A stretch of 24,000 nt of DNA from an uncultured Solobacterium sp. (GTDB lineage Bacteria; Bacillota_I; Bacilli_A; Erysipelotrichales; Erysipelotrichaceae): positions 68,995 to 92,994 of the forward strand of contig NZ_CAUVCV010000005.1 of NCBI RefSeq assembly GCF_963550625.1. Reading direction: 5' to 3'. Under the pieces are notes generated by a model. The model ran no database searches, was not told the DNA's origin, and was given only the letters and a program-made list of their open reading frames with translations. This document shows positions 1,702 through 19,965 of the stretch, one piece after another (positions within the stretch are counted from its first letter, which is position 1; every line of letters begins with the position of its first letter). Both the position numbers and the translations under genes were made by a program.

Positions 1702-1731
1702 AAAACACACTTCTTATGAGGTGTGTTTTTT
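1702..1731. terminator. bidirectional rho-independent terminator (copy T1 of a repeated hairpin)
   Basis: AAAACACACTTC-TTAT-GAGGTGTGTTTT: 12-bp stem with one G-U pair, A-tract 5' and T-tract 3'. Lies between the convergent gap and amidohydrolase genes. Confidence 0.8.
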
Positions 1732-1743
1732 ATTTATTAACAA

Positions 1744-3276
1744 TTACTTTTGGAAAACAATTCTGCCATTAACAATTGTCATAAACACTTCTAATTCACG
1801 ACAATCTATTGGATCAGTGTGTAATATGTCTCCATCAATTACAGTTAAATCTGCAAGTTTACCAACTGTGATTGAGCCTAAATCTTTTTCGCGATAAAAA
1901 TCGTAAGCACCACCGGATGTCCAACTTTCTAATACTTCAACAGGTGTTAAACAGTTTTCTTGATTGAAAGGAAGACCACCTTCTGGAAATAGACCAGTAA
2001 CAGAGTAATAGATAGATTCAGGAATATTATCAATAACAAGTGGTAAATCTGTACCGCAACATAGTGGAACCCCATAATCTTTCATCTTACGACGATTCCA
2101 ATAGTTTTTTCCGCGTTCCATCCCAATCATCTTTTTGATCATTCCAACTTTATCGTCATAACTAGTAATTGATTGAATTTGTGGATAGTATTCACAAATA
2201 ATGCCTAGATCTGCCATTCGTTTTAAATCCACTGGATCACTGAACTCAGCTTCGGTTATAGCATGGCGATTAACAAGTTTACCGTTATGATCTTTTTCAC
2301 ATAGGCTAAAAATATCTACGGCTTTAGCTACAGCGCCGTCACCTTGCGCATTTAGTGAAAACCGTGTACCTAGTCTATCTGCTTCTAGTACTTCATCTTG
2401 AATTAAATTCCAATCAATATTTAGTTTGCAGTTATAAGTTTGATTCTCATATGGGTACTTTAATAAGCCGTTTCCTTGAGAAATAGAACCATCGGTCATA
2501 CGGTTAAAACCAGAAAAGCGAATAAACTCAGAGTTAAATTCAGCCATCATTCTTTTTGCATATTCGAAGTCAGCATTTGAACTAACAGGCTGTGACATAA
2601 AATGTACACGAAGATTTAACTCGTTTTTAGATTCCAGTTCAGATAAGATATCTTGAAATCCACTAAATTGGTCAAAGCCAATTTCTTTTACGGAAGTAAT
2701 TCCACGCGAATTCAGCATAGACGTATATTTTTTGAATAATGGTTTAATAAAACTCTTATCTTTTAACACTTCATCTAATAATTTCCAAAACACTTCGTTA
2801 CAGTCTGCGGTTAAGTCAAATCCGTAATGATTGATTGCTGTTTTATTTATCCAGAAATGATCACCACTTATAGAAAAGATAACAAGACGGCAATTTGGAA
2901 ATAATTCCTCTAATCTCTCTGGACTTGGAACCGTAAAATTATCAGATATTCCATGGCCGAAAAGAGAATCTTGCATCGTATATTGAGATTTTAGAATTTC
3001 AATTACTTCGGTTTCAGTATTTGCTGTTGAAAGATCAATTCCGATATGACGTAGAGACCATCCAGTGAAGAAGGTATGTGCATCAAAAAAACCTGGCAAG
3101 ATTGTTTTGCCACTTAGGTCATATATAGGATAATTTTCTTGTAATGAAGAAGGGATAGGACCGTTTTCAACAGATTGAATTTTATTATTTTGTATGATTA
3201 TATAGCCGTTGATGATTCCTTGTTCATCAGAGCAAAAAATATGATCTGATTTTAAGATATATTGCGTAATAGACAT
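1744..3276 (-). CDS. amidohydrolase-family protein (YtcJ-like / Amidohydro_3 type), divergent
   Basis: 510 aa. The order of blocks LPGFFDAH, MTDGSIS, NAQGDGAV, NRHAITEAE, CGTDLPL and C-terminal GKLADLTVID matches the layout of COG1574-type TIM-barrel metal hydrolases. AGGAGG (minus strand, 3281-3286) lies just upstream of the ATG. Confidence 0.75.
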   Translation of the reverse strand: MSITQYILKSDHIFCSDEQGIINGYIIIQNNKIQSVENGPIPSSLQENYPIYDLSGKTILPGFFDAHTFFTGWSLRHIGIDLSTANTETEVIEILKSQYTMQDSLFGHGISDNFTVPSPERLEELFPNCRLVIFSISGDHFWINKTAINHYGFDLTADCNEVFWKLLDEVLKDKSFIKPLFKKYTSMLNSRGITSVKEIGFDQFSGFQDILSELESKNELNLRVHFMSQPVSSNADFEYAKRMMAEFNSEFIRFSGFNRMTDGSISQGNGLLKYPYENQTYNCKLNIDWNLIQDEVLEADRLGTRFSLNAQGDGAVAKAVDIFSLCEKDHNGKLVNRHAITEAEFSDPVDLKRMADLGIICEYYPQIQSITSYDDKVGMIKKMIGMERGKNYWNRRKMKDYGVPLCCGTDLPLVIDNIPESIYYSVTGLFPEGGLPFNQENCLTPVEVLESWTSGGAYDFYREKDLGSITVGKLADLTVIDGDILHTDPIDCRELEVFMTIVNGRIVFQK

Positions 3277-3323
3277 TTTTCCTCCTAGGCGAAACCCAAA
3301 AAAGCATATGAATATATGCTTGG

Positions 3324-3351
3324 TGTAGAGGATTTTGTTTCAAGTGTAGAT
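3324..3351. promoter_or_regulatory. candidate operator, copy A of the shared motif TGTAGAGGA..TTTCAA.GTGTAGAT
   Basis: Intergenic, 48-75 nt upstream of the amidohydrolase start. Shares three identical blocks (9+6+8 nt) with 4961-4991. Confidence 0.4.
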
Positions 3352-3391
3352 CTTATTTTGAATATAACACAAAAAATTAATAAATTACAAA

Positions 3392-4141
3392 TTATTCAGA
3401 TTTAAAAGTTTCAAATCCGTATTCTGCTTTGTCACATGGCATATAGGATGTTGTGAATTCAACAATGCTTCCACTAGAGTCATGCCCAATATATTGAAGA
3501 TTGTAAATATAACTATCAGAGGTTATACCCATAATTTTAGTAATTGGGTGAAATGCTTTTTGAATTGTAAGTTTTTGTTCAAATGAAATTGGAAAGTGCT
3601 CTTTCTGTTTCATGTAATCATAAAGCGAGGCCTTTGAGAAATCATGACCTTGGATATCACTAAAATATTTGAATGGGAGATAGCAGTATTCAAGAGCAAT
3701 ACTTTCACTATCAATCTTACGCAAACGGTGTAAAGCATATATTTTCTCGCCATGTTTTAAATTAAGCTTCTTCTCAATGTATGTTTGATCCTGAATAATA
3801 CCTTCTTCTAAGATGTAATTTTTGAGAGTTAGACCATGTTTATTAATAAATGCACCAAGGCCAATACTCTTACCTGTAGAATGATCGTTCAAATACAAAA
3901 TTTTATTTGTGATTTTCTTTGTCACAAAAGTGCCATTATTTTTAACTCGGAATAAATAACCCTCATCAATTAAAGTATTGATTGCATGTTTAACCGTCAT
4001 ACGATTTATGTGATAGAGTGCAGACATTTCTCGTTCACTAGGAATCTTTTCTCCAGGTAAATATTCACCATCTTTAATACGCTGGATAATTAAGTTTTTT
4101 AACTGAATATATAAAGGAATTTGGTAGTTCATAATTATCAC
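3392..4141 (-). CDS. GntR-family transcriptional regulator, HutC subfamily (UTRA-type effector domain)
   Basis: Winged-helix signature EKIPSEREMSALYHINRMTVKHAINTLIDEGYLFRVKNNGTFV plus a ~170-aa C-terminal domain. GTG at 4139-4141 abuts the TAG stop (4142-4144) of the upstream paralog. ATG at 4132 (MNYQIPLY) is an alternative start. Confidence 0.85.
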   Translation of the reverse strand: MIIMNYQIPLYIQLKNLIIQRIKDGEYLPGEKIPSEREMSALYHINRMTVKHAINTLIDEGYLFRVKNNGTFVTKKITNKILYLNDHSTGKSIGLGAFINKHGLTLKNYILEEGIIQDQTYIEKKLNLKHGEKIYALHRLRKIDSESIALEYCYLPFKYFSDIQGHDFSKASLYDYMKQKEHFPISFEQKLTIQKAFHPITKIMGITSDSYIYNLQYIGHDSSGSIVEFTTSYMPCDKAEYGFETFKSE

Positions 4142-4846
4142 CTAAATTAACTCGAATGAGAAGCGATCATACTTCATATAACTTTCAGTAAAAGCAAGAA
4201 CATGGTTATGCTTGTCGAATATACATCCAGAAAGCAAGGCTACATTTGCGGTGTTAGAAAGTTCTAAAGAATCTCGATAACTGTTTTCCGCTTCAATGAC
4301 ACGGATACGCTGTGTTGTTCTATAGAATTCAAATTGAAATTTATCTATCAAAATGTCATTTAAATTTTCAATATCTTCTTTATAATTCACGAGTTCAGGG
4401 GCAAGATTCACAGGGATAAAACAATAGTCCATACATACCGGTTCATGGTCTGCGATTAATAATCGCTTTATTTCAAAAAACTTTGTTCCAAGTGGCAAAT
4501 TTGTTTCACGGCATAAATATTTATCGGCTTCGATTTCAACAAATTTAAATAGCTTTGTCTCATATGTTGAAACGTTATCTTTTATAATTTCTGACATTAA
4601 ACGAATAGAATTTACATTTTTTGAAATTCGTTGTTTTGCTACAAAATACCCAACTTTAGGTACAACATCAACAATTCCCATTTCTTCTAGAATTTTCATA
4701 GCCGAACGAAGGGTTAAACGCTGAATTGAAAAAAGATCACATAATTCGCGCTCGCTTGGGAGCTTGTCCTGATATTTTAAATGTTGATCAGCAATATATT
4801 GTCTTATTTCATTGCTTATCATAATATCCAATGTCATAACTTTCAT
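4142..4846 (-). CDS. GntR-family transcriptional regulator, HutC subfamily (second, divergent paralog)
   Basis: DKLPSERELCDLFSIQRLTLRSAMKILEEMGIVDVVPKVGYFV winged-helix signature plus a UTRA-sized C-terminal domain. No SD before ATG 4846. Confidence 0.85.
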   Translation of the reverse strand: MKVMTLDIMISNEIRQYIADQHLKYQDKLPSERELCDLFSIQRLTLRSAMKILEEMGIVDVVPKVGYFVAKQRISKNVNSIRLMSEIIKDNVSTYETKLFKFVEIEADKYLCRETNLPLGTKFFEIKRLLIADHEPVCMDYCFIPVNLAPELVNYKEDIENLNDILIDKFQFEFYRTTQRIRVIEAENSYRDSLELSNTANVALLSGCIFDKHNHVLAFTESYMKYDRFSFELI

Positions 4847-4900
4847 GCACTTATTTTAACAACTTTGTATATATTTAATCAAATACAATAATGTAAGGGG

Positions 4901-4928
4901 TTGCAAACCTATTATCAACTGGTATAAT
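4901..4928 (+). promoter_or_regulatory. extended -10 promoter of the permease/kinase/deglycase operon
   Basis: TTGCAA (4901-4906), 16-nt spacer ending in TGG, then TATAAT (4923-4928), giving TGnTATAAT. Confidence 0.55.
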
Positions 4929-4954
4929 AAAATTAAATAGTGGTATATATGTAA

Positions 4955-7160
<2,206 letters not shown>

Positions 7161-7161
<1 letters not shown>

Positions 7162-7940
7162 TGGCAGTTATCAGAATGACATTCTTCTCTACTGCTTTAA
7201 GGATGACAACAAACTGTAATATATTAATACCCGATAATTCAAATGATGTAACACCAATATGTAATGGTCAGTATAAAACCTTATATCTATTACATGGTTT
7301 ATCCGGTAATGCAGAGGAATGGATTCGGTTTACAAAACTGGAATATTATGCAAAGAAATTTGGCTATATCATTGTTATGCCTGAAGTAGGAAGAAGTTTT
7401 TATACAAATATAGATGGGATTAATTATGCAAAATATATTGCGGAAGAACTTCCTAATTATTTAAGTCAGTGGTTTAAAATTCCAACACAAAAAGAGTGTA
7501 CTTATATTGCTGGTGAAAGTATGGGTGGATATGGAGCATTGAAAATTGGATTTAGTTATCCAAAACAATACCAATCGATAGCGGCATTATCACCAGTAAT
7601 ACATTTAGAAGAACTACGTTGTATGGTTGAGAACAAAGTGTTCGAAGAAATGGGTGTTGATGAGATTGATAGAATCATTTCTCAAAATGATTACTTTGAT
7701 ATCTATAAATATCTTGATAACAAACCAAGTAAAGATTACCCTTCTGTTATTCAATTGTGTGGGACAGATGATTTCTTGGTTGATAGCAATCAAAAGTTCT
7801 ATCACTATGCAAAGAATAAGATAGATATTACTTATCGAGAGTTAAGTGGTGATCATGAGTGGCCTGTATGGGATATTGCAATACAGAAAGCTATACAATA
7901 TTTTGAAAAATATGACATTGATCATTTTCGGCTATATTGA
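7161..7940 (+). CDS. esterase D / EstA-type serine esterase (PF00756-like)
   Basis: YLLHGLSGNAEEW, nucleophile elbow GESMGGYGA, C-terminal GDHEW. The N-terminus MAVIRMTFFS resembles streptococcal EstA. ATG 7161 overlaps the kinase stop (TAATG). The track start TTG 7155 is less likely. Confidence 0.85.
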
Positions 7941-7958
7941 GAAACGGAGAGATTAGAT

Positions 7959-9020
7959 ATGATAACAACAGAATTATGGAAAGAAAACGAAGGTGCTAAT
8001 CTCCGTAACTTTCATGAAGAACAAGATTTAAAAAGTGTAAATGGTGCATTAGCTTTACGCAAAGATATTGAAAAGATTATTGATAAAATTTGGGATGAAG
8101 GATTTGATAATATTTTCTATATTGGTATTGGAGGGACATATGCGTCCGCAATGCAAGTTGAAGTATATATGCGCGGAAGAAGTAAATTGCCAGTATTTGT
8201 AGAAAATGCAGCAGAGTTTTTAACAACAGGGAATAAAAGATTTACAAATAAGTCTATAGCGATTCTATCTTCCGTATCTGGCAATACTTTAGAGATGATC
8301 GAACTAGTGGATAAGGTACATGAAATTGGTGGAAAGGTATTTAGTTTTATCGATACACCAAATACAATTCTTGCACAACCGGATAAACAAGATTATCTAA
8401 TTTTGTATCCAAAAAATGAACAACTAAAATTCTACATGACCGCAAATTACTTCATGTATAAAAACGGGGAATTTGCAGAATATGATGACTACAACCAAAA
8501 TATGGAAAACTATTTAGCAGAAGCATTGGTCAATGTAGAAAAGCAAGCAGATACATGGGCGTACCAGTATGCTATGCAGAAAGTTGAATTTTTAGATAAA
8601 CATCCAGATTTACCTCACTATTTTATAGGTGCAGGTAACCAATATGGTGCAACATATTCATATGCTATGTGCTATTGGGAGGAACAAATGTGGATACGAA
8701 CAAAATCTATAAGTTCTCCTGAATTTTTCCATGGTATGCAAGAAATAATAGTAAAAGATACACCAATTACCTTATTTATCGGTGAAGATGAACAAAGACC
8801 GTTATCCGAAAGGGTTGCACGATTCCTTCCACAAGTAAATTCAAATTACGTTATTATTGATACAAAAGAATTTGAATTAAGCGGAATCAAAAAAGAATAT
8901 CGTGGCAGCATATCCCATCTGGTTATGCATGCAGTAAATAATCGCGTTGATGCGTATATGGAAAAATTCCTAAGACATCCATTGAGTATAAGAAGATATT
9001 ATCGCCAGTTCGATTATTAA
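7959..9020 (+). CDS. frlB: SIS-domain fructosamine-6-phosphate deglycase-like protein
   Basis: 353 aa. Phosphosugar-binding loop IGIGGTYASA, PEFFHGMQEI (E..HG) block and a C-terminal RRYY motif, as in FrlB/FraB-type deglycases (recalled). GGAGAG RBS 7 nt upstream. Confidence 0.85.
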   Translation: MITTELWKENEGANLRNFHEEQDLKSVNGALALRKDIEKIIDKIWDEGFDNIFYIGIGGTYASAMQVEVYMRGRSKLPVFVENAAEFLTTGNKRFTNKSIAILSSVSGNTLEMIELVDKVHEIGGKVFSFIDTPNTILAQPDKQDYLILYPKNEQLKFYMTANYFMYKNGEFAEYDDYNQNMENYLAEALVNVEKQADTWAYQYAMQKVEFLDKHPDLPHYFIGAGNQYGATYSYAMCYWEEQMWIRTKSISSPEFFHGMQEIIVKDTPITLFIGEDEQRPLSERVARFLPQVNSNYVIIDTKEFELSGIKKEYRGSISHLVMHAVNNRVDAYMEKFLRHPLSIRRYYRQFDY

Positions 9021-9040
9021 TATAATTTTTGAGATTAACA

Positions 9041-9073
9041 ATAAATATTATCGGTTTAGCCGATAATATTTAT
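9041..9073 (+). promoter_or_regulatory. perfect 14-bp stem-loop inside the operon (attenuator, partial terminator or mRNA stabiliser)
   Basis: ATAAATATTATCGG-TTTAG-CCGATAATATTTAT, followed only by GTTTC (weak U-tract). Lies in the 121-nt gap between the deglycase and the next gene. Confidence 0.45.
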
Positions 9074-9141
9074 GTTTCATATCATATTTTTAATATACAG
9101 AGAAATATCAGCCTTCATAAAGAAAGATAGGAGAGAATTTT

Positions 9142-9954
9142 ATGAAATTTGGGTTATTTACGTGCGGATATCAAAGATTTGATATTGAAAAAGCATTTCA
9201 AGATGCGCAAAGATTTGGATATGACTATGTTGAATTATGGGGTGCAAGACCACATGCATATCCTTATGATCTTGAAATATGTGCAAATAGAATCAATGAA
9301 TTAATAAAAAAATACAACATGCCTGTAACTGTATATACACCAGAATTAAACGCGTATCCATTTAATTTGATGTGGGAAAATGAAAGCATGCGTGATAATT
9401 CTTTAGAATATGTTTATAAATCTTTGGATTTCGCAAAAGCCATTGGTGCAGAATATACTTTAATTTCGGCTGGACATGCTGGTTTTGAAGCTACTGAAGA
9501 AATAATAAAAGAACGTTTATATGATAGTTTGGAAAAGATAATAGCGTATGCAGAAAAAGTTGGCATAAAAATTGTGTATGAACCATTAACAATTTATGAA
9601 TCTAATGTAACAACTACGTCTAACCAACTACTGGAATTATGTAATCACTTTAATTCTCCTTATTTCTTTGCAATGAATGATATTGTTGTACCGTATATAC
9701 AAGGAGAAAATATCATTGAATTTAATAAGAAATTAGGTAGTAAATTAGTACATATGCATGTAGTTGATAGTGACGGGCAATCTGAAGATCATTACTGTCC
9801 AGGTTATGGTAATTTGCCGTTAACGAATTTCATGCAAGAACTCATAGATAGTGGGTATGATGAAACGGTTACAATTGAATTGGTAACAAAATATCTAAAT
9901 GAACCTAGTATTTACGCAAAACTAGCAATTAATAATTTAAAAGAAGGGCTGTAA
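9142..9954 (+). CDS. xylose-isomerase-like TIM-barrel sugar(-phosphate) epimerase/isomerase (FrlC-like or SgbU/UlaE-like)
   Basis: 270 aa. Blocks FTCGYQR, ELWGARPHAY, YEPL, HVVDSDG and TIELVTKYLNEP fit PF01261-type enzymes. Size and several blocks resemble fructoselysine 3-epimerase FrlC as recalled. AGGAGAG RBS. Confidence 0.8.
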   Translation: MKFGLFTCGYQRFDIEKAFQDAQRFGYDYVELWGARPHAYPYDLEICANRINELIKKYNMPVTVYTPELNAYPFNLMWENESMRDNSLEYVYKSLDFAKAIGAEYTLISAGHAGFEATEEIIKERLYDSLEKIIAYAEKVGIKIVYEPLTIYESNVTTTSNQLLELCNHFNSPYFFAMNDIVVPYIQGENIIEFNKKLGSKLVHMHVVDSDGQSEDHYCPGYGNLPLTNFMQELIDSGYDETVTIELVTKYLNEPSIYAKLAINNLKEGL

Positions 9955-9956
9955 AT

Positions 9957-10781
9957 ATGTGGATGAAAGATTTATGGCACAAAGATAAAGTCATTATAGG
10001 AACGCTGCATCTAGATGCATTGCCTGGAGATCCAAGATATTCTGCTAGTGATAGTCTAGATATAATTATTGAACATGCAAGAATGGATCTAAAATCGTTA
10101 ATTAATGGTGGCGTAGATGCCGTGTTAATATCAAATGAATTTAGTTTTCCATATCAAAGAAAAATGGACTATGTTACTGTTGCATGTATGGCAAGAATAA
10201 TTGGTGAAATAAAAAAAGATATTACAGTTCCTTTCGGAGTTGATGCAATATCTGATGGAGCCGCAACATTGGAACTTGCTAGAGCTGTAGATGCAGATTT
10301 TTGTAGAGGTACGTTCTCGGGTGTGTATGTTGGAGATGGTGGTTTATATAATAATGATATTTCCAAACTCTTAAGAAGAAAAACAGAATTGCATTTATCT
10401 AATTTAAAGATGCTTTATTTTATTAATCCAGAATCTGACAAGAATTTAGATACACGAGATTTAACTGAAATCGCAAAATCGACAGTATTCAAAACGGGAG
10501 CGGATGGATTATGTATATCTGCCAGTGCAGCAGGACAAGATGTTAATGAAGTTTTAATTCAATGTGTTAAAGATGCATGTCCAAGTGTTGCAGTGCTAGC
10601 GAATACAGGATGTAGACCTGAAACAATAGAATCCAAATTAAAGTATGCAGATGCTGCAGTTGTTGGAACATATTTTAAGACAGACGGTAAGTTACAAGAT
10701 AGTAATGGAAATAATGTAAGGGTAGATGTAAACCGAGTTAAAGAATTTATGGATGTAGTTAATCGATTCAGAAAGGAATAA
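9957..10781 (+). CDS. BtpA/SgcQ-family TIM-barrel protein, function unknown
   Basis: 274 aa. N-terminal IGTLHLDALPGDPRY matches the family hallmark (G-x-H-L-x-x-L-P-G-x-P). Starts 2 nt after the previous stop. Confidence 0.75.
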   Translation: MWMKDLWHKDKVIIGTLHLDALPGDPRYSASDSLDIIIEHARMDLKSLINGGVDAVLISNEFSFPYQRKMDYVTVACMARIIGEIKKDITVPFGVDAISDGAATLELARAVDADFCRGTFSGVYVGDGGLYNNDISKLLRRKTELHLSNLKMLYFINPESDKNLDTRDLTEIAKSTVFKTGADGLCISASAAGQDVNEVLIQCVKDACPSVAVLANTGCRPETIESKLKYADAAVVGTYFKTDGKLQDSNGNNVRVDVNRVKEFMDVVNRFRKE

Positions 10782-10788
10782 TAAGGTT

Positions 10789-12327
10789 ATGACATCAAAA
10801 TATTTTGTTGGAATTGATGTAGGAACAAATGAAACAAAGGGTATTTTGATTGATGAAAATGGACGTGAAGTTATATCAGCATATACAGCACATGGTATTG
10901 AGAATCCAAAACCAAATTATTTCGAGCATGATGCGGATGAAGTTTGGTATAAGGATGTTTGCATTATTGCTCAAAAACTAATAAAGCAATCGCAAGTTGA
11001 TCCTAAAGATATTAAGAGTATCGGAATTAGTGCACTGAGTTCAGATTGTCTACCTGTAGATATTGAAGGAAAACCATTACGCAAAGCAATTCTCTATGGA
11101 ATTGATGCACGTGCACTATCCGAATGTCAAGAATTAACCGAAAAATGGGGAAGAGATAAAGTGATTGAGCTTTTTGGCAGACCGTTAGGATCAAGTGATA
11201 TAGCCCCAAAAATTCTGTGGATAAAAAATAATGAGCCGGATGTGTATAGGAAAACACATAAGTTTTTAACGGCATCCTCTTACATAACTTTTAAACTAAC
11301 GGGAAATTATACGATCGATAACTTCTTAGGCCTAGCAAGTTTTAATCCTCTGTATAGACGTGATGGTTCAATTAATGAGCAATATGCAGAAGGAGTATGC
11401 TTGACGGGTCAACTTGCAGACCTTAAAAAGACTACAGATATAGCCGGGTATATTACAAAAGAAGCAGCAAAGGATACTGGGTTTGCAGAAGGAACAGCAG
11501 TAATCACTGGTGGAGATGATTCTGGAGCTGAGGCCATTAGTAGTGGCGTTATGACGCCCGGAGATATGTTAGTACAAATGGGTTCGACTGTGTATATGAT
11601 TTTATGTACGGATAAATTGTATGATGATAATCGCCTATGGCGGGAAGAGTTTATAGTCCCGAATACATATGATATATCTGCCGGAACAAATACATCAGGT
11701 GCTTTAACAAAATGGGTCAGAGATACTTTCTATCCGGATAAAGTTAAAGAACAAGAACAAGGTGGTATTAATGCATACCAAGCTATGATGGAGGATTTAA
11801 AAGAAATTCCTATTGGCAGTGGAGGGTTGGTTGTTTTACCTTATTTTGCAGGAGAGAGAACACCAATTAATGATGCGCATGCAAAAGGAATCATCTTTGG
11901 ATTGAATCTAGCACATACTCGAAAACATATTATGAGAGCAGCATATGAATCCGTATGTTATTCGATTAAACATCACTTTGAAATATTTAAGGAGTTAGGA
12001 ATTCCTATAAACCAGATTATGGTAACAGGTGGTGGCACAAAAAATGAAGTATGGATACAAATGTTATCTGATGTACTAGGAATCAAACTACAGACACCAT
12101 CTGTGACTATTGGCGCAAGTTATGGTGATGCGCTTATGGCAATGATAGGAGTAAATCATATTAAGGATTTTGCGGAAGCAAAAAAGCTAATTGAGACAGG
12201 CAAAGTATATTATCCAAATTTAGAGAACACAAAAAAATATGAACCTTATTATAAGATATACATTGAGCTATATAAAAAGAATAAGGAATTAATGTCTACG
12301 ATGGATGAAATAAATCAACTTGCCTAA
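10789..12327 (+). CDS. FGGY-family carbohydrate kinase (xylulokinase/L-xylulose kinase-like)
   Basis: 512 aa. N-terminal YFVGIDVGTNETKGILID phosphate-1 motif and C-terminal VTGGGTKNEVWIQMLSDVLG FGGY signature. Confidence 0.9.
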   Translation: MTSKYFVGIDVGTNETKGILIDENGREVISAYTAHGIENPKPNYFEHDADEVWYKDVCIIAQKLIKQSQVDPKDIKSIGISALSSDCLPVDIEGKPLRKAILYGIDARALSECQELTEKWGRDKVIELFGRPLGSSDIAPKILWIKNNEPDVYRKTHKFLTASSYITFKLTGNYTIDNFLGLASFNPLYRRDGSINEQYAEGVCLTGQLADLKKTTDIAGYITKEAAKDTGFAEGTAVITGGDDSGAEAISSGVMTPGDMLVQMGSTVYMILCTDKLYDDNRLWREEFIVPNTYDISAGTNTSGALTKWVRDTFYPDKVKEQEQGGINAYQAMMEDLKEIPIGSGGLVVLPYFAGERTPINDAHAKGIIFGLNLAHTRKHIMRAAYESVCYSIKHHFEIFKELGIPINQIMVTGGGTKNEVWIQMLSDVLGIKLQTPSVTIGASYGDALMAMIGVNHIKDFAEAKKLIETGKVYYPNLENTKKYEPYYKIYIELYKKNKELMSTMDEINQLA

Positions 12328-12359
12328 AAATCACACTTCTTATGAGGTGTGATTTTTTT
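12328..12359 (+). terminator. rho-independent terminator (copy T2 of the repeated hairpin)
   Basis: AAATCACACTTC-TTAT-GAGGTGTGATTT followed by T-run, starting at the first base after the kinase stop. Core identical to T1 (1702-1731). Confidence 0.8.
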
Positions 12360-12497
12360 AGGTCATGACACAGACCTAACTGGTAAAGTGTTTTTTCCGA
12401 AAAGTCAAATACCTAACTTGATTAAATGATAGAATATAAGAATATTGACATACTGTAAATCAGAATTGATTTACCAAAAATTGTGGAGGAACAGCAA

Positions 12498-13139
12498 ATG
12501 AAAAAACGTATTGCTTTATTAGTTTATCCTGATTTTAGCTTACAAGAAGTAACTAACCTGATGTATTTCTTTCGGTGGGCTTTTGATACTTTTACGGATG
12601 TTATATATACAGATCTATCTCCTGTTAGGAGTGAAGAAGGAATATTAGTGCAGCCAGTAAAAACGTGTACTAAGTTTTGTAAAGAGGATTATGATTGCTT
12701 GATTCTTCCGGGATGCAGTAATTTAACGCAACCTATACGGAATAAAAAAATAAGAGAGTTTTTAGAGTCATTCGCAAATGATAATACTTTTGTTATTGGC
12801 GCAATTTGTGCTGGTCCAGTATTCTTGGCGCAAGCAGGTTTATTGAAAAATAAAAAATATACTGCTTCGTTATATGCTGAAATGATGGAATTGTTTAGTT
12901 TTGTTGAAGAAGATAATTTCTTGCCACAATCGGTAGTAGAAGATGAAAATATAATCACTGCTGTAGGCAGTGCATTTAACGAGTTTGCAGTACATGTTGC
13001 TAGAAAACTTGGTTATGAATGCCCGGATAAAATATTAAGTGGTTATATGGATTCAGATGATGCTAATGACTATATTCATCATCTAACGGAAGAAGATTTA
13101 CTAGAATTTAAAAAGGAATTTAAAGAATTTATTGATTAA
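12498..13139 (+). CDS. DJ-1/PfpI-superfamily protein (DJ-1-like nucleophile elbow) with acidic C-terminal extension
   Basis: KKRIALLVYPDFSLQEV start and AICAGPVFLAQAG cysteine elbow. GGAGGA at 12485-12490 is 7 nt before ATG 12498, which I prefer over the track start GTG 12483. Confidence 0.8.
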   Translation: MKKRIALLVYPDFSLQEVTNLMYFFRWAFDTFTDVIYTDLSPVRSEEGILVQPVKTCTKFCKEDYDCLILPGCSNLTQPIRNKKIREFLESFANDNTFVIGAICAGPVFLAQAGLLKNKKYTASLYAEMMELFSFVEEDNFLPQSVVEDENIITAVGSAFNEFAVHVARKLGYECPDKILSGYMDSDDANDYIHHLTEEDLLEFKKEFKEFID

Positions 13140-13192: not shown

Positions 13193-13223
13193 AAATCACA
13201 CCTCATGAGAAGTGTGATTTTTT
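13193..13223. repeat. copy T3 of the repeated hairpin, inverted relative to T1/T2; probable terminator
   Basis: AAATCACACCTC-ATGA-GAAGTGTGATTT plus T-run. Its reverse complement differs from T2 by one loop base. On the + strand RNA the stem carries a C-A mismatch. Confidence 0.6.
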
Positions 13224-17889: not shown

Positions 17890-19965
17890 ATGCTAAATAA
17901 ATTACCAGAAAAATTAACACTTCTACGAAAACATTACGGTCTTTCACAGGGTGATGTAGCAACAAAAATCAGTGTAAAGTTTACCGATTATATGAACTGG
18001 GAAAATGGCAATAGTATCCCATCAATATCAAATATTCGTAAGTTATCTATGTTGTTTGGTGTTCCGGTTGAATCTTTTATTGATAACAGAAAGGTAATTG
18101 AGTTACCTGAGATAAAGGTAGTACCACCAGTACAACCAGAGTCAAGACCAGAACCAGAACAAAAACTAGATGAAACATTAAAAACAAGTACAATTCATAC
18201 ACAAAGAGTTAATTCTGTTAAGAATGACTTAGGAAGTACACGTGTCATGGATGCAGGAAAGATTAAGACAGCCGCAAAGGCAGCAGATACAAATCAACCG
18301 AAGAAACAAGATACTCAAAACAATCGCAAGAAGATTTCTTATGCGATTATCGCCGGATGCTTGGTTGCGGTTATCGCAGTTGTAGCACTTATCTTACGTA
18401 TGACAACAGGTGGCGGTAAATCAAACTTTACTGTAGAAACTTCTGAACTAAACTGTATCGCAGAAGGTGATACCTATACATTATTTATTAATAAGAATAA
18501 TGCCTTAGAAGTTTATGGTGATTTCCAGTATAAGAATGAATTCCAGGATGTTGTACAAGTCAGTGCTTATGGAAGTCATGCGGTAGGCCTTAAGAAAGAT
18601 GGTACAGTCGTAACGACCGATAAGAATGAGGAAGTTACGAAATGGAAGAACATTAAGGCGATTGCGGCTGGAAAAGACCATACAGTTGGTTTAACAAGTG
18701 ATGGTAAAGTTCTTTGTGCAGGTAGTGAACTTGCGTGTCAAGTCAGTGATTGGACAGATGTAGAGAGCGTCTACGCTGGTGATGATGCGACATTTGCGAT
18801 TGTAAATGGACAGGTGAAAGTATCAGGTAACTCTGCAAACTTCAGTACAATTAGTGACGCAAAGAAGTTGGCTGTTGGTGATTCACAAGTACTTGTATTA
18901 AAGAAAGATGGTAGTGTAGCTGCTGTATCCTTAAAGGGAAACAGTACAAGTGATGTATCTAGCTGGGCTAAGATCGCATCCATTGCTGTAGGAAAAAACT
19001 ATGTCGTTGGTGTACATGAAGATGGCACAGTCAGTGTTGTCTCAGATGATAAAGATTTAAAGGAAACAGTCGAAGCTTGGACAGATGTAAAATATATCGC
19101 AGCGTATGATGATACACTCGTTGCCTTCAATCGCTCTGGTAAGATGTATGGTTATGGAGATAACTCCAGTAGCCAATACGATAATTCATTTAAGGCAGAT
19201 GCAAAACAACTATCACAAGTGAAGAATATTACATTCACAGTCACAACAGCGAATGTAAATATTGCGTGGGATCCAGTTGAAAATGCAGATTACTATGAAT
19301 TAACAATTAACACGAATCCAATTACAGAACATAAGAATATTATTTCAAATAGTGATAGTATCGCATCCTCATCCCTCAAGGATGGAGAGACATACGTCGT
19401 AACAATCACAGCACATTCCAAGAAGGAAGATAAGTATAAGACAAGTGAGAAGACTTCGATTAACTTTGCATATAGTGCAAAGACAGTACAGCTCAACTCA
19501 CCAACAGATATTACAGCGAATGGGTTACAGAATGCTTGGCATTTTGCTTGGTCAGCAGTAGAGAATGCAGATAAGTATAATATCTCAATTGATGGAACGG
19601 TTGCGGCATCTAATGTTGAAGGAACATCCATTACGATTGACGGTATCTCATTTGCGGAAGGCTCTGAACATGAAATTAGTATTACAGCTCTATCATCGAA
19701 CCCTGCATACACTGAAAGTGTACCAACAAAGGCTAAGATGAAGTATACTATCAGCAAAGGTAAGATTAAGGTTAATCTTGAAAAACCAGATGGTAGCAGT
19801 GCCGGTTCAAAGACATATGAGCTCAATGTAGGTTCGTACTATATTCAAAATATTATCAAACCTAGTGATATCCCAAGTGGATTCAAACTGTCAACTGAAC
19901 CTGTTCAAGCTGAAGTTATGAATGGGCAAACAACAGAAGTAACGATTAAATTAGAAGCAAACTAA
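17890..19965 (+). CDS. membrane-tethered XRE-family HTH protein with extracellular RCC1-like beta-propeller, two FN3-like modules and a C-terminal beta-sandwich-like domain
   Basis: aa 7-63: Cro/C1 HTH (LRKHYGLSQGDVATKISV...WENG...P). aa 149-171: single TM (ISYAIIAGCLVAVIAVVALILRM). aa ~187-430: seven 35-40-aa repeats (AYGSHAVGLKKDGTVVT, AAGKDHTVGLTSDGKVLCAG, AVGDSQVLVLKKDGSVAAV, AVGKNYVVGVHEDGTVSVV and others). aa 443-528 and 535-619: modules sharing W-x-x-VENAD-x-Y. GGAGG RBS. Confidence 0.85.
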   Translation: MLNKLPEKLTLLRKHYGLSQGDVATKISVKFTDYMNWENGNSIPSISNIRKLSMLFGVPVESFIDNRKVIELPEIKVVPPVQPESRPEPEQKLDETLKTSTIHTQRVNSVKNDLGSTRVMDAGKIKTAAKAADTNQPKKQDTQNNRKKISYAIIAGCLVAVIAVVALILRMTTGGGKSNFTVETSELNCIAEGDTYTLFINKNNALEVYGDFQYKNEFQDVVQVSAYGSHAVGLKKDGTVVTTDKNEEVTKWKNIKAIAAGKDHTVGLTSDGKVLCAGSELACQVSDWTDVESVYAGDDATFAIVNGQVKVSGNSANFSTISDAKKLAVGDSQVLVLKKDGSVAAVSLKGNSTSDVSSWAKIASIAVGKNYVVGVHEDGTVSVVSDDKDLKETVEAWTDVKYIAAYDDTLVAFNRSGKMYGYGDNSSSQYDNSFKADAKQLSQVKNITFTVTTANVNIAWDPVENADYYELTINTNPITEHKNIISNSDSIASSSLKDGETYVVTITAHSKKEDKYKTSEKTSINFAYSAKTVQLNSPTDITANGLQNAWHFAWSAVENADKYNISIDGTVAASNVEGTSITIDGISFAEGSEHEISITALSSNPAYTESVPTKAKMKYTISKGKIKVNLEKPDGSSAGSKTYELNVGSYYIQNIIKPSDIPSGFKLSTEPVQAEVMNGQTTEVTIKLEAN

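Follow-up and report, generated by a model that had tools for sequence, protein, structure and literature searches.

The window examined here is a stretch of 24,000 nucleotides from an uncultured Solobacterium sp. of the Erysipelotrichaceae (assembly GCF_963550625.1, contig NZ_CAUVCV010000005.1), and at positions 1744-12360 it carries a block of ten intact genes. In this mouth/gut bacterium the block is probably an island for the catabolism of lysine-type Amadori compounds (ketoamines), in which accessory enzymes would extend a core fructoselysine pathway. Fructoselysine is a sugar-lysine compound formed on heating food; cooked food and processed feed are rich in it and in related Amadori compounds, for which gut bacteria compete. 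To our knowledge, the bacterial routes characterised so far comprise only a transporter or phosphotransferase system (PTS), a kinase, a deglycase, and sometimes an epimerase or asparaginase.

Genes of the island and the predicted core pathway

The ten genes, and the families to which the original prediction had assigned them from the letters alone, were borne out by the open reading frame list, Pfam and NCBIfam, and each gene lies where it had been placed. On the minus strand are the gene for a 510-residue YtcJ-like amidohydrolase-fold protein with a non-canonical metal site (1744-3276; Pfam Amidohydro_3) and two abutting genes for HutC/GntR regulators, A (3392-4141) and B (4142-4846), each having a GntR helix-turn-helix and a UTRA domain. 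Across a divergent control region (4847-5020), the plus strand encodes a FrlA-like APC permease (5021-6370), a FrlD-type fructoselysine 6-kinase of the PfkB family (6367-7161), a predicted cytoplasmic serine esterase of the EstA/FphF type (7161-7940), a SIS-domain phospho-ketoamine deglycase (7959-9020), a FrlC-type fructoselysine 3-epimerase having the AP_endonuc_2 TIM barrel (9142-9954), a phosphate-binding (beta/alpha)8 barrel of the BtpA/SgcQ family (9957-10781), and a xylulokinase-like sugar kinase of the FGGY family (10789-12327). An intrinsic terminator on the plus strand (12328-12360), consisting of a hairpin of -21.4 kcal/mol (z -7.2) and then a U-run, closes the island.

Translational coupling had been claimed at 6367-6370 and 7159-7163, and the stop/start overlaps are present: the kinase start codon ATG (6367-6369) runs into the TGA (6368-6370) that ends the permease gene, and the esterase ATG (7161-7163) shares its first base with the kinase stop codon TAA (7159-7161). 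The gaps that follow are 18 nt between the esterase and SIS genes, 2 nt between frlC and btpA, and 7 nt between btpA and the FGGY gene, with the 121-nt SIS-frlC gap as the exception. The permease is the sole transporter encoded by the island. By base composition the block was not distinguishable from its flanks, and a DNA search against plasmids gave no match for it.

Comparison with NCBI's curated NCBIfam cut-offs, in which the whole-protein score decides an equivalog call, places three of the core proteins close to the E. coli fructoselysine proteins. FrlA is the best model for the permease, at 566.4 bits (E 4e-170) with the next family at 197 bits, although the score stays under the 800-bit cut-off; identity to FrlA of E. 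coli K-12 is 56%. The PfkB-family protein passes the fructoselysine 6-kinase equivalog NF007321 (320.6 bits, cut-off 247; 42% identical to E. coli FrlD), as against 71-89 bits for the 5-dehydro-2-deoxygluconokinase, fructokinase and ribokinase models, and the epimerase passes the FrlC equivalog NF007360 (350.3 bits, cut-off 305; 46% identical to E. coli FrlC).

The SIS protein is of a different kind. Against the E. coli FrlB equivalog NF008481 it reaches 47.7 of the 430 bits required, and its identity to that protein is only 21%; its best matches in the PDB are 2A3N (1.7e-56) and 8GLR, the Salmonella FrlB (7.8e-55, about 34% identity), followed by B. subtilis FrlB 3EUA (9e-29) and FraB entries (about 1e-24). 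Salmonella FrlB has been shown by experiment to cleave 6-phosphofructose-lysine using the catalytic pair E224/H240, with S46, S91, S93, T96 and E98 also in the site (PMC10285752). In the alignment to 8GLR, the equivalents of E224 and H240 are retained 16 residues apart, in WEEQ (240-243) and FFHG (256-259), and those of S91, S93, G94, T96 and E98 lie in SVSGNTLE at 105, with S46 replaced by Thr. The deglycase belongs to the Salmonella FrlB (GfrF) clade and not to that of E. coli FrlB, and as this type is PTS-linked in Salmonella, the locus mixes parts of the E. coli and Salmonella systems. The earlier label "FrlB-like SIS deglycase" therefore stands as to deglycase type, with the 8GLR match and the catalytic pair behind it, but not as to the E. 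coli FrlB type.

With both equivalogs passed, the permease at 56% identity and the SIS catalytic residues kept, the assignment as an frl-type Amadori island is upheld. Greater nearness of the kinase and SIS protein to ribokinase and GlmS-type enzymes had been named as what would speak against it; the kinase scored 320.6 bits as FrlD and 71 as ribokinase, and the SIS protein matches 8GLR. On these grounds a core pathway of import, 6-phosphorylation, deglycation and 3-epimerisation of fructoselysine/psicoselysine is a well-supported prediction.

Conservation and nature of the accessory genes

All window proteins were compared by tblastn with 80 species-representative loci centred on SIS homologues, and co-occurrence was counted in the 40 loci having at least 8 kb on either side of the SIS homologue. 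FrlD was found in 39 of these, FrlA in 33, FrlC in 31, the esterase in 30, the amidohydrolase in 29, BtpA in 24 and FGGY in 23, and the genes stay together despite many changes of order and orientation. Fisher tests of co-occurrence are indicative only, because the loci are related by descent and horizontal transfer; SIS proteins of Bacillota and Spirochaetota share 73-80% identity, a sign of horizontal spread, so the counts do not represent independent events. The carriers, dozens of species, fall in Clostridia, Erysipelotrichia, Bacilli and Sphaerochaetaceae. They include Oscillospiraceae/Ruminococcaceae (Gemmiger, Faecalibacterium, Anaerotruncus, Allofournierella, Pseudoflavonifractor), Lachnospiraceae (Schaedlerella, Faecalimonas, [Ruminococcus] faecis), other Erysipelotrichaceae, Sphaerochaetaceae, Pleomorphochaeta and, through BtpA-seeded look-ups, the Bacilli Vagococcus and Cytobacillus. 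Loci from Solobacterium and unclassified Erysipelotrichaceae metagenome-assembled genomes (L007-L014) encode SIS proteins 91-94% identical to that of the window and, where their contigs reach, have the same neighbours, with GAPDH upstream and LytTR downstream, which marks the window as chromosomal DNA of the Solobacterium lineage. A 110-kb metagenome contig with Solobacterium-like synteny (L104) carries the amidohydrolase, two GntR, FrlA, FrlD, esterase, FrlC, BtpA, DJ-1 and LytTR genes, with no detectable SIS or FGGY gene, which may reflect decay or divergence beyond the search thresholds.

The commonest architecture is larger than that of the window. It can be written as four parts: the divergent amidohydrolase gene; FrlD paralogue 2 - FrlC - Amidohydro_2 - YjbQ; FrlA - GntR - FrlD - GntR - esterase - SIS; and BtpA - HAD phosphatase - FGGY, to which a third AP_endonuc_2 protein is often added. 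The two PfkB paralogues of Vagococcus score above the FrlD equivalog cut-off (346.6 and 330.1 bits), and the barrel next to them passes FrlC at 439 bits. The Solobacterium island is without the second PfkB kinase, Amidohydro_2, YjbQ and the HAD phosphatase and, judged by gene content, is a reduced, compact variant of this widespread supercluster. The extra genes of the expanded island proposed originally are therefore real, while the notion of a one-off expansion gives way to a reduced form of something larger. Smaller forms also occur: Butyrivibrio/Pseudobutyrivibrio have amidohydrolase, FrlA, GntR, FrlD, GntR and SIS genes, C. neuense has SIS, FrlC, PfkB and permease genes divergent from the amidohydrolase gene, and some loci have the kinase and SIS genes only. 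A pair of HutC-type regulators accompanies the cluster in most taxa. Translational coupling and conserved synteny across two phyla bear out the claim that the extra genes are true members, and comparative genomics confirms that the presence of these four enzymes beside the frl genes is not due to chance.

The esterase, an alpha/beta-hydrolase, is assigned by Pfam Esterase (PF00756; 72.3 bits, cut-off 22) and by PDB matches to 4rgy (1.8e-43), FphF 6vh9 and the tributyrin esterase 2uz0, and has the nucleophile motif GESMG (GxSxG) at 118-122. It appears to lack a signal peptide, since its structural homologues align from residue 1, and it falls below the S-formylglutathione hydrolase equivalog (50.4 against 281.7 bits). 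Its gene is immediately 5' of the SIS gene in 53 of 53 loci. In one lineage without an EstA-type esterase, a GDSL/SGNH esterase gene is found inside the cluster (L172, 6166-6786; L103, 168-785). This may be a non-homologous replacement, seen as a single case, and suggests that the esterase step is what selection keeps.

The amidohydrolase scores 106.6 bits with Pfam Amidohydro_3, and its AlphaFold2 model (predicted local distance difference test, pLDDT, 87.5) is nearest in fold to the uncharacterised YtcJ-type hydrolases 3igh and 3icj (TM 0.70-0.76); inspection of the N-terminus revealed no apparent signal peptide. The canonical HxH is H67-x-F69, a change shared by 33 of 33 homologues, and the carboxy-Lys position is Asn in all 33 (N258 here). 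At position 309, a canonical His ligand, His is found in 24 of the 33 and Asn in the other 9, the window protein included. D410 and a WNRRKM motif are invariant among the 33. A binuclear-metal YtcJ-like hydrolase has HxH on strand 1, a carboxylated Lys, two more His and an Asp on strand 8; of this ligand set only D410 is kept in the window protein, which is conserved and constrained but probably not a standard binuclear amidase. The original listing of an amidohydrolase as an extra enzyme holds for its fold and membership; an ordinary amidase acting on an "amidated" substrate is made less likely by the loss of most metal ligands. Membership is further indicated by co-occurrence with FrlA in 29 of 33 loci, and by independently seeded homologues (47-49% identity), of which three of three adjoin frl-type genes. 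The Lys/Arg carboxypeptidase Cc2672 was considered as a guide to function, and at TM 0.55 the resemblance is too weak for transfer.

These two proteins bear on the possibility that the ten genes together encode a linear route for one complex substrate other than fructoselysine, for instance a sugar-amino-acid conjugate that is esterified, lactonised or N-acylated (an opine-like or amide-type glycation product would be an example), involving de-esterification, C-N hydrolysis, two phosphorylations and deglycation. The unbroken placement of the esterase within the kinase-SIS operon and its exchange for a GDSL type would suit such a pathway, as would the retention of the amidohydrolase even in the minimal Butyrivibrio and C. 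neuense clusters, the presence of two kinases with one transporter, and a SIS clade separate from E. coli FrlB. However, FrlA, FrlD and FrlC reach or approach equivalog level with the E. coli fructoselysine/psicoselysine proteins, the SIS protein is similar to an enzyme for which cleavage of 6-phosphofructose-lysine has been proven, and the metal site of the amidohydrolase is degenerate. The clusters are also modular, many being without esterase, BtpA or FGGY, and optional branches fit this better, so that a single linear route is unlikely.

The BtpA protein passes the BtpA/SgcQ model TIGR00259 (222.8 bits against 153.4) and Pfam PF03437 (212.5 bits), and is below the photosystem-I BtpA equivalog (122 against 400). 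It has no sequence relative in the PDB. Its AlphaFold2 model is a (beta/alpha)8 barrel (pLDDT 87.5), for which Foldseek returned only the broad class of phosphate-binding barrels, namely GGGPS/PcrB, KDPGal aldolase, RPE, IGPS, TrpA, ThiE, HisF and PRAI, with query TM-scores (TMq) of 0.48-0.59. PRAI ranks only 39th, and these model-based matches neither support nor exclude a PRAI/HisA-like reverse-Amadori enzyme. A BtpA homologue of 66% identity is found in a ula/sgb-like cluster (L099, 5668-10226; also L096, L098 and L109), in L099 together with a PTE-family lactonase, a 141-residue open reading frame, a UlaD-like OMPdecase/HUMPS protein, an RPE-like protein and a class II aldolase/AraD-like epimerase, with a Csm6 gene near; its position among UlaD-, RPE- and AraD-like genes suggests ketose-phosphate chemistry. 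In a further set of human-gut metagenome contigs (L130-L142), BtpA is accompanied by an HAD phosphatase, a FrlD paralogue, Amidohydro_2, YjbQ, two GntR proteins, FGGY, an NhaC-family transporter and MatE, with no SIS deglycase, FrlA or FrlC within 8 kb. Such clusters of BtpA, FGGY and FrlD paralogue without SIS hint at a SIS-independent BtpA route.

The second kinase, as originally predicted, is of the FGGY family, but it did not pass as XylB-type, being under the cut-off of the XylB equivalog TIGR01312 (308.3 against 380.25 bits); other models gave 231.8 bits (GntK) and 201.7 bits (LsrK), and the best PDB match is 3ifr. FGGY co-occurs with BtpA in 23 of 24 loci. In other Erysipelotrichaceae loci (L056-L063, L078), RPE-like and AraD-like genes and the gene of another FGGY kinase (26-27% identity) lie upstream of the island FGGY gene and convergent to it, and these neighbours suggest a link to pentulose-phosphate metabolism.

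With btpA and the FGGY gene arises the question of whether two unrelated units adjoin here, a complete frlA-frlD-esterase-SIS Amadori operon and a separate frlC-btpA-FGGY operon that handles some rare sugar in free form, either a pentulose or a hexulose. A boundary could be drawn in the 121-nt SIS-frlC gap, which holds a perfect 15-bp palindrome (9041-9073), folds at -21.5 kcal/mol (z -3.3) and is 92-96% conserved in most related Solobacterium-lineage loci; the palindrome could be an attenuator or a second operator, for the second regulator. The kinship of the FGGY kinase to xylulokinase, gluconokinase and LsrK is consistent with such a division, as are the RPE-like and AraD-like genes beside FGGY in the Erysipelotrichaceae loci just described and the 66%-identity BtpA homologues in ula/sgb-like pentulose-phosphate clusters without frl genes (L096-L099). 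The synteny elsewhere argues otherwise. Immediately 3' of the SIS gene and on its strand is where btpA lies in 31 of 38 loci, at gaps of 20-300 nt, the exceptions being the Solobacterium lineage, in which frlC is inserted between, and one other locus. When metagenome contigs of at least 9 kb were seeded independently by a BtpA profile search, a FrlD-like kinase or SIS gene was nearby in 36 of the 43 contigs. Moreover, the first gene of the supposed sugar operon passes a fructoselysine 3-epimerase equivalog, and no sugar transporter is encoded in that half. Two unrelated units are for these reasons improbable, and a single Amadori island with accessory enzymes is preferred.

Control regions and flanking DNA

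Regulator A (Pfam GntR 64.4 and UTRA 74.7 bits) shares 23% identity with E. coli FrlR and 64-65% with the regulator of the Sphaerochaetaceae islands; regulator B scores 50.3 and 62.3 bits with the same models, and the pair are 21-23% identical to FrlR. The divergent control region contains a promoter, TTGCAA-16-TATAAT with the TG of an extended -10, at 4901-4928, and three of the window's six TGGTATA/TATACCA half-sites. Two operator-like sites, AGTGGTATATATGTAAACC and GTGTAGATAT(A/G)CCACAAG, show little or no variation among 10 Solobacterium-lineage loci, whereas the stretch separating the two sites is variable. No copies of the TGGTATA motif were found upstream of frlC or of the amidohydrolase gene. 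A weak hairpin with a U-run on the minus strand (3297-3321; -8.3 kcal/mol, z -3.5) separates the regulator genes from the amidohydrolase gene, whose ribosome-binding site follows about 20 nt downstream. An Rfam scan of the whole window gave no riboswitch or other RNA family, and control by a lysine riboswitch is thus not supported. The conserved TGGTATA-type sites would allow one HutC-type regulator, or both, to repress the divergent promoter, with repression relieved by a phospho-ketoamine, by analogy with FrlR.

Downstream of the island is a DJ-1/PfpI gene (12483-13139), which raises the possibility that the locus serves repair or detoxification of endogenous glycation products and reactive intermediates, with this gene as a participant. 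The esterase family does include thioesterases of the S-formylglutathione-hydrolase type, which would be in keeping with such a role. However, the strong terminator stands between the two, and the gene is missing from the sister Solobacterium loci L008 and L013; it was accordingly rejected as an island member, and it is present in only 1 of the 40 full loci. A dedicated, high-identity importer points to uptake of an external compound, and the anaerobes that carry the island live in gut, rumen and mouth, where they meet Maillard products of the diet. A repair function is therefore very improbable.

A 20-nt hairpin core, CACACTTCTTATGAGGTGTG, occurs three times in the window where none is expected by chance, at 1706-1725 (+), 12332-12351 (+) and 13197-13216 (-). 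They enclose the island and the DJ-1 gene, serving as terminators, and in L008 the same two flanking copies are present; the element may be a repetitive extragenic palindromic (REP)-like terminator or may represent insertion scars. The DJ-1 gene is present in Solobacterium loci L010, L011 and L091, and its presence or absence among the Solobacterium loci suggests a variable cassette between two hairpin copies. Farther along, positions 17890-19965 encode a 691-residue protein combining an N-terminal HTH_3/HTH_19 domain with RCC1 repeats and fibronectin type III, an unusual arrangement for a bacterial regulator.

Proposed pathway and comparison with known systems

In the core pathway, the FrlA-like permease would import fructoselysine and psicoselysine, the C3 epimers would be interconverted by the FrlC-type epimerase, C6 would be phosphorylated by the FrlD-type kinase, and the SIS deglycase would split the 6-phosphate to glucose-6-phosphate and lysine. 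The comparative genomic data support true pathway membership of the esterase, the atypical amidohydrolase, BtpA and the FGGY kinase, and the roles given to them here are ones that we infer. Because the island has a sole transporter, and neither the esterase nor the amidohydrolase has an apparent signal peptide, the accessory enzymes would act intracellularly, either on the cargo of FrlA or on downstream intermediates. The esterase and amidohydrolase may prepare derivatised ketoamines, or their phospho-forms, for deglycation, and BtpA and FGGY may form a sugar-phosphate branch that salvages a sugar moiety not directly glycolytic, for example one from a ketoamine not derived from glucose.

Several considerations weigh against this core-plus-accessory model. 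Since glucose-6-phosphate needs no extra processing, the model must assume substrates other than fructoselysine. The amidohydrolase is without three canonical metal ligands, one ligand position being His or Asn across the family, and may not be a hydrolase at all, and the fold matches of BtpA are generic (TMq at most 0.59). The BtpA branch may be independent of the deglycase, as the SIS-less clusters would have it, and the 121-nt gap with its strong palindrome may split the island into two transcription units. Finally, the loci are phylogenetically non-independent, and if the block moves horizontally as a whole, co-occurrence will have been counted too often.

The comparative data on the clusters favour a multi-branch system; its substrates may include acylated or esterified derivatives, or two classes of ketoamine, as the original prediction suggested. 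A more specific version may be put forward tentatively, in which the esterase-SIS-BtpA core with FGGY, joined elsewhere by FrlD paralogue 2, Amidohydro_2, YjbQ and the HAD phosphatase, would be a multi-branch pathway for Maillard products, and BtpA/SgcQ would catalyse a new step on phospho-ketoamines or on unusual sugar-phosphate products, possibly independently of SIS. An extension of the known fructoselysine pathway that has yet to be studied probably exists. Many anaerobes of gut, rumen and mouth commonly have a gene set much richer than those characterised. It offers a testable metabolic context for families without a known physiological role, namely BtpA/SgcQ, the metal-site-degenerate YtcJ-like protein and, in sister loci, YjbQ, and it could reveal further Maillard products degraded by the microbiota and the chemistry used.

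The original prediction knew of no characterised locus of this composition, and a literature search on fructoselysine together with BtpA, FGGY, esterase, YjbQ or amidohydrolase likewise found no paper describing one; nor was a function assigned to BtpA/SgcQ found in the literature searched. Two reported clusters were considered as possible instances of the same system and set aside: the F. prausnitzii "fructoselysine operon" is of the PTS gfr type (PMC12136445), and the Intestinimonas AF211 cluster, consisting of kinase, deglycase and transporter (PMC4697335), uses an ABC importer.

Among known systems, E. coli frlABCD-frlR shares with the island an APC permease, a PfkB 6-kinase, a 3-epimerase, the SIS deglycase step and a HutC/GntR regulator, but the island has two regulators instead of one, four extra enzymes, another gene order and a deglycase only 21% identical. 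The Salmonella gfr system has the SIS protein closest to that of the island (FrlB/GfrF; PDB 8GLR, 2A3N), with the Glu/His pair and phosphate-binding Ser/Thr residues kept in common. There, uptake and phosphorylation are coupled by a mannose-family PTS (PMC10285752), whereas the island has a permease and a separate kinase, with no PTS genes and no GfrE homologue. B. subtilis frlBONMD-frlP/frlR and the Intestinimonas cluster follow the same logic of kinase and SIS deglycase under a GntR regulator, but have ABC importers and none of the four accessory enzymes. Salmonella fraBDAE-fraR, again with kinase and SIS deglycase, has one extra hydrolase that remodels the amino-acid part and is thus a precedent for accessory hydrolases; this enzyme, FraE, is a periplasmic asparaginase of an unrelated family, whereas the hydrolases of the island are apparently cytoplasmic and have esterase and amidohydrolase folds. 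Relatives of the remaining accessory genes occur in the E. coli sgc operon, where SgcQ is that organism's BtpA-family member, and in the yiaK-S/ula operons for pentulose phosphates, which include the FGGY kinase LyxK and the AP_endonuc_2 epimerases SgbU/UlaE, but these operons have no ketoamine kinase or deglycase.

In summary, the predicted pathway logic is familiar, while the conserved accessory modules are uncharacterised and include families of unknown function. What appears new in the Solobacterium island and its relatives is the combination of FrlA, FrlD and FrlC of the E. coli type with a deglycase of the Salmonella type and four enzymes absent from the characterised systems.

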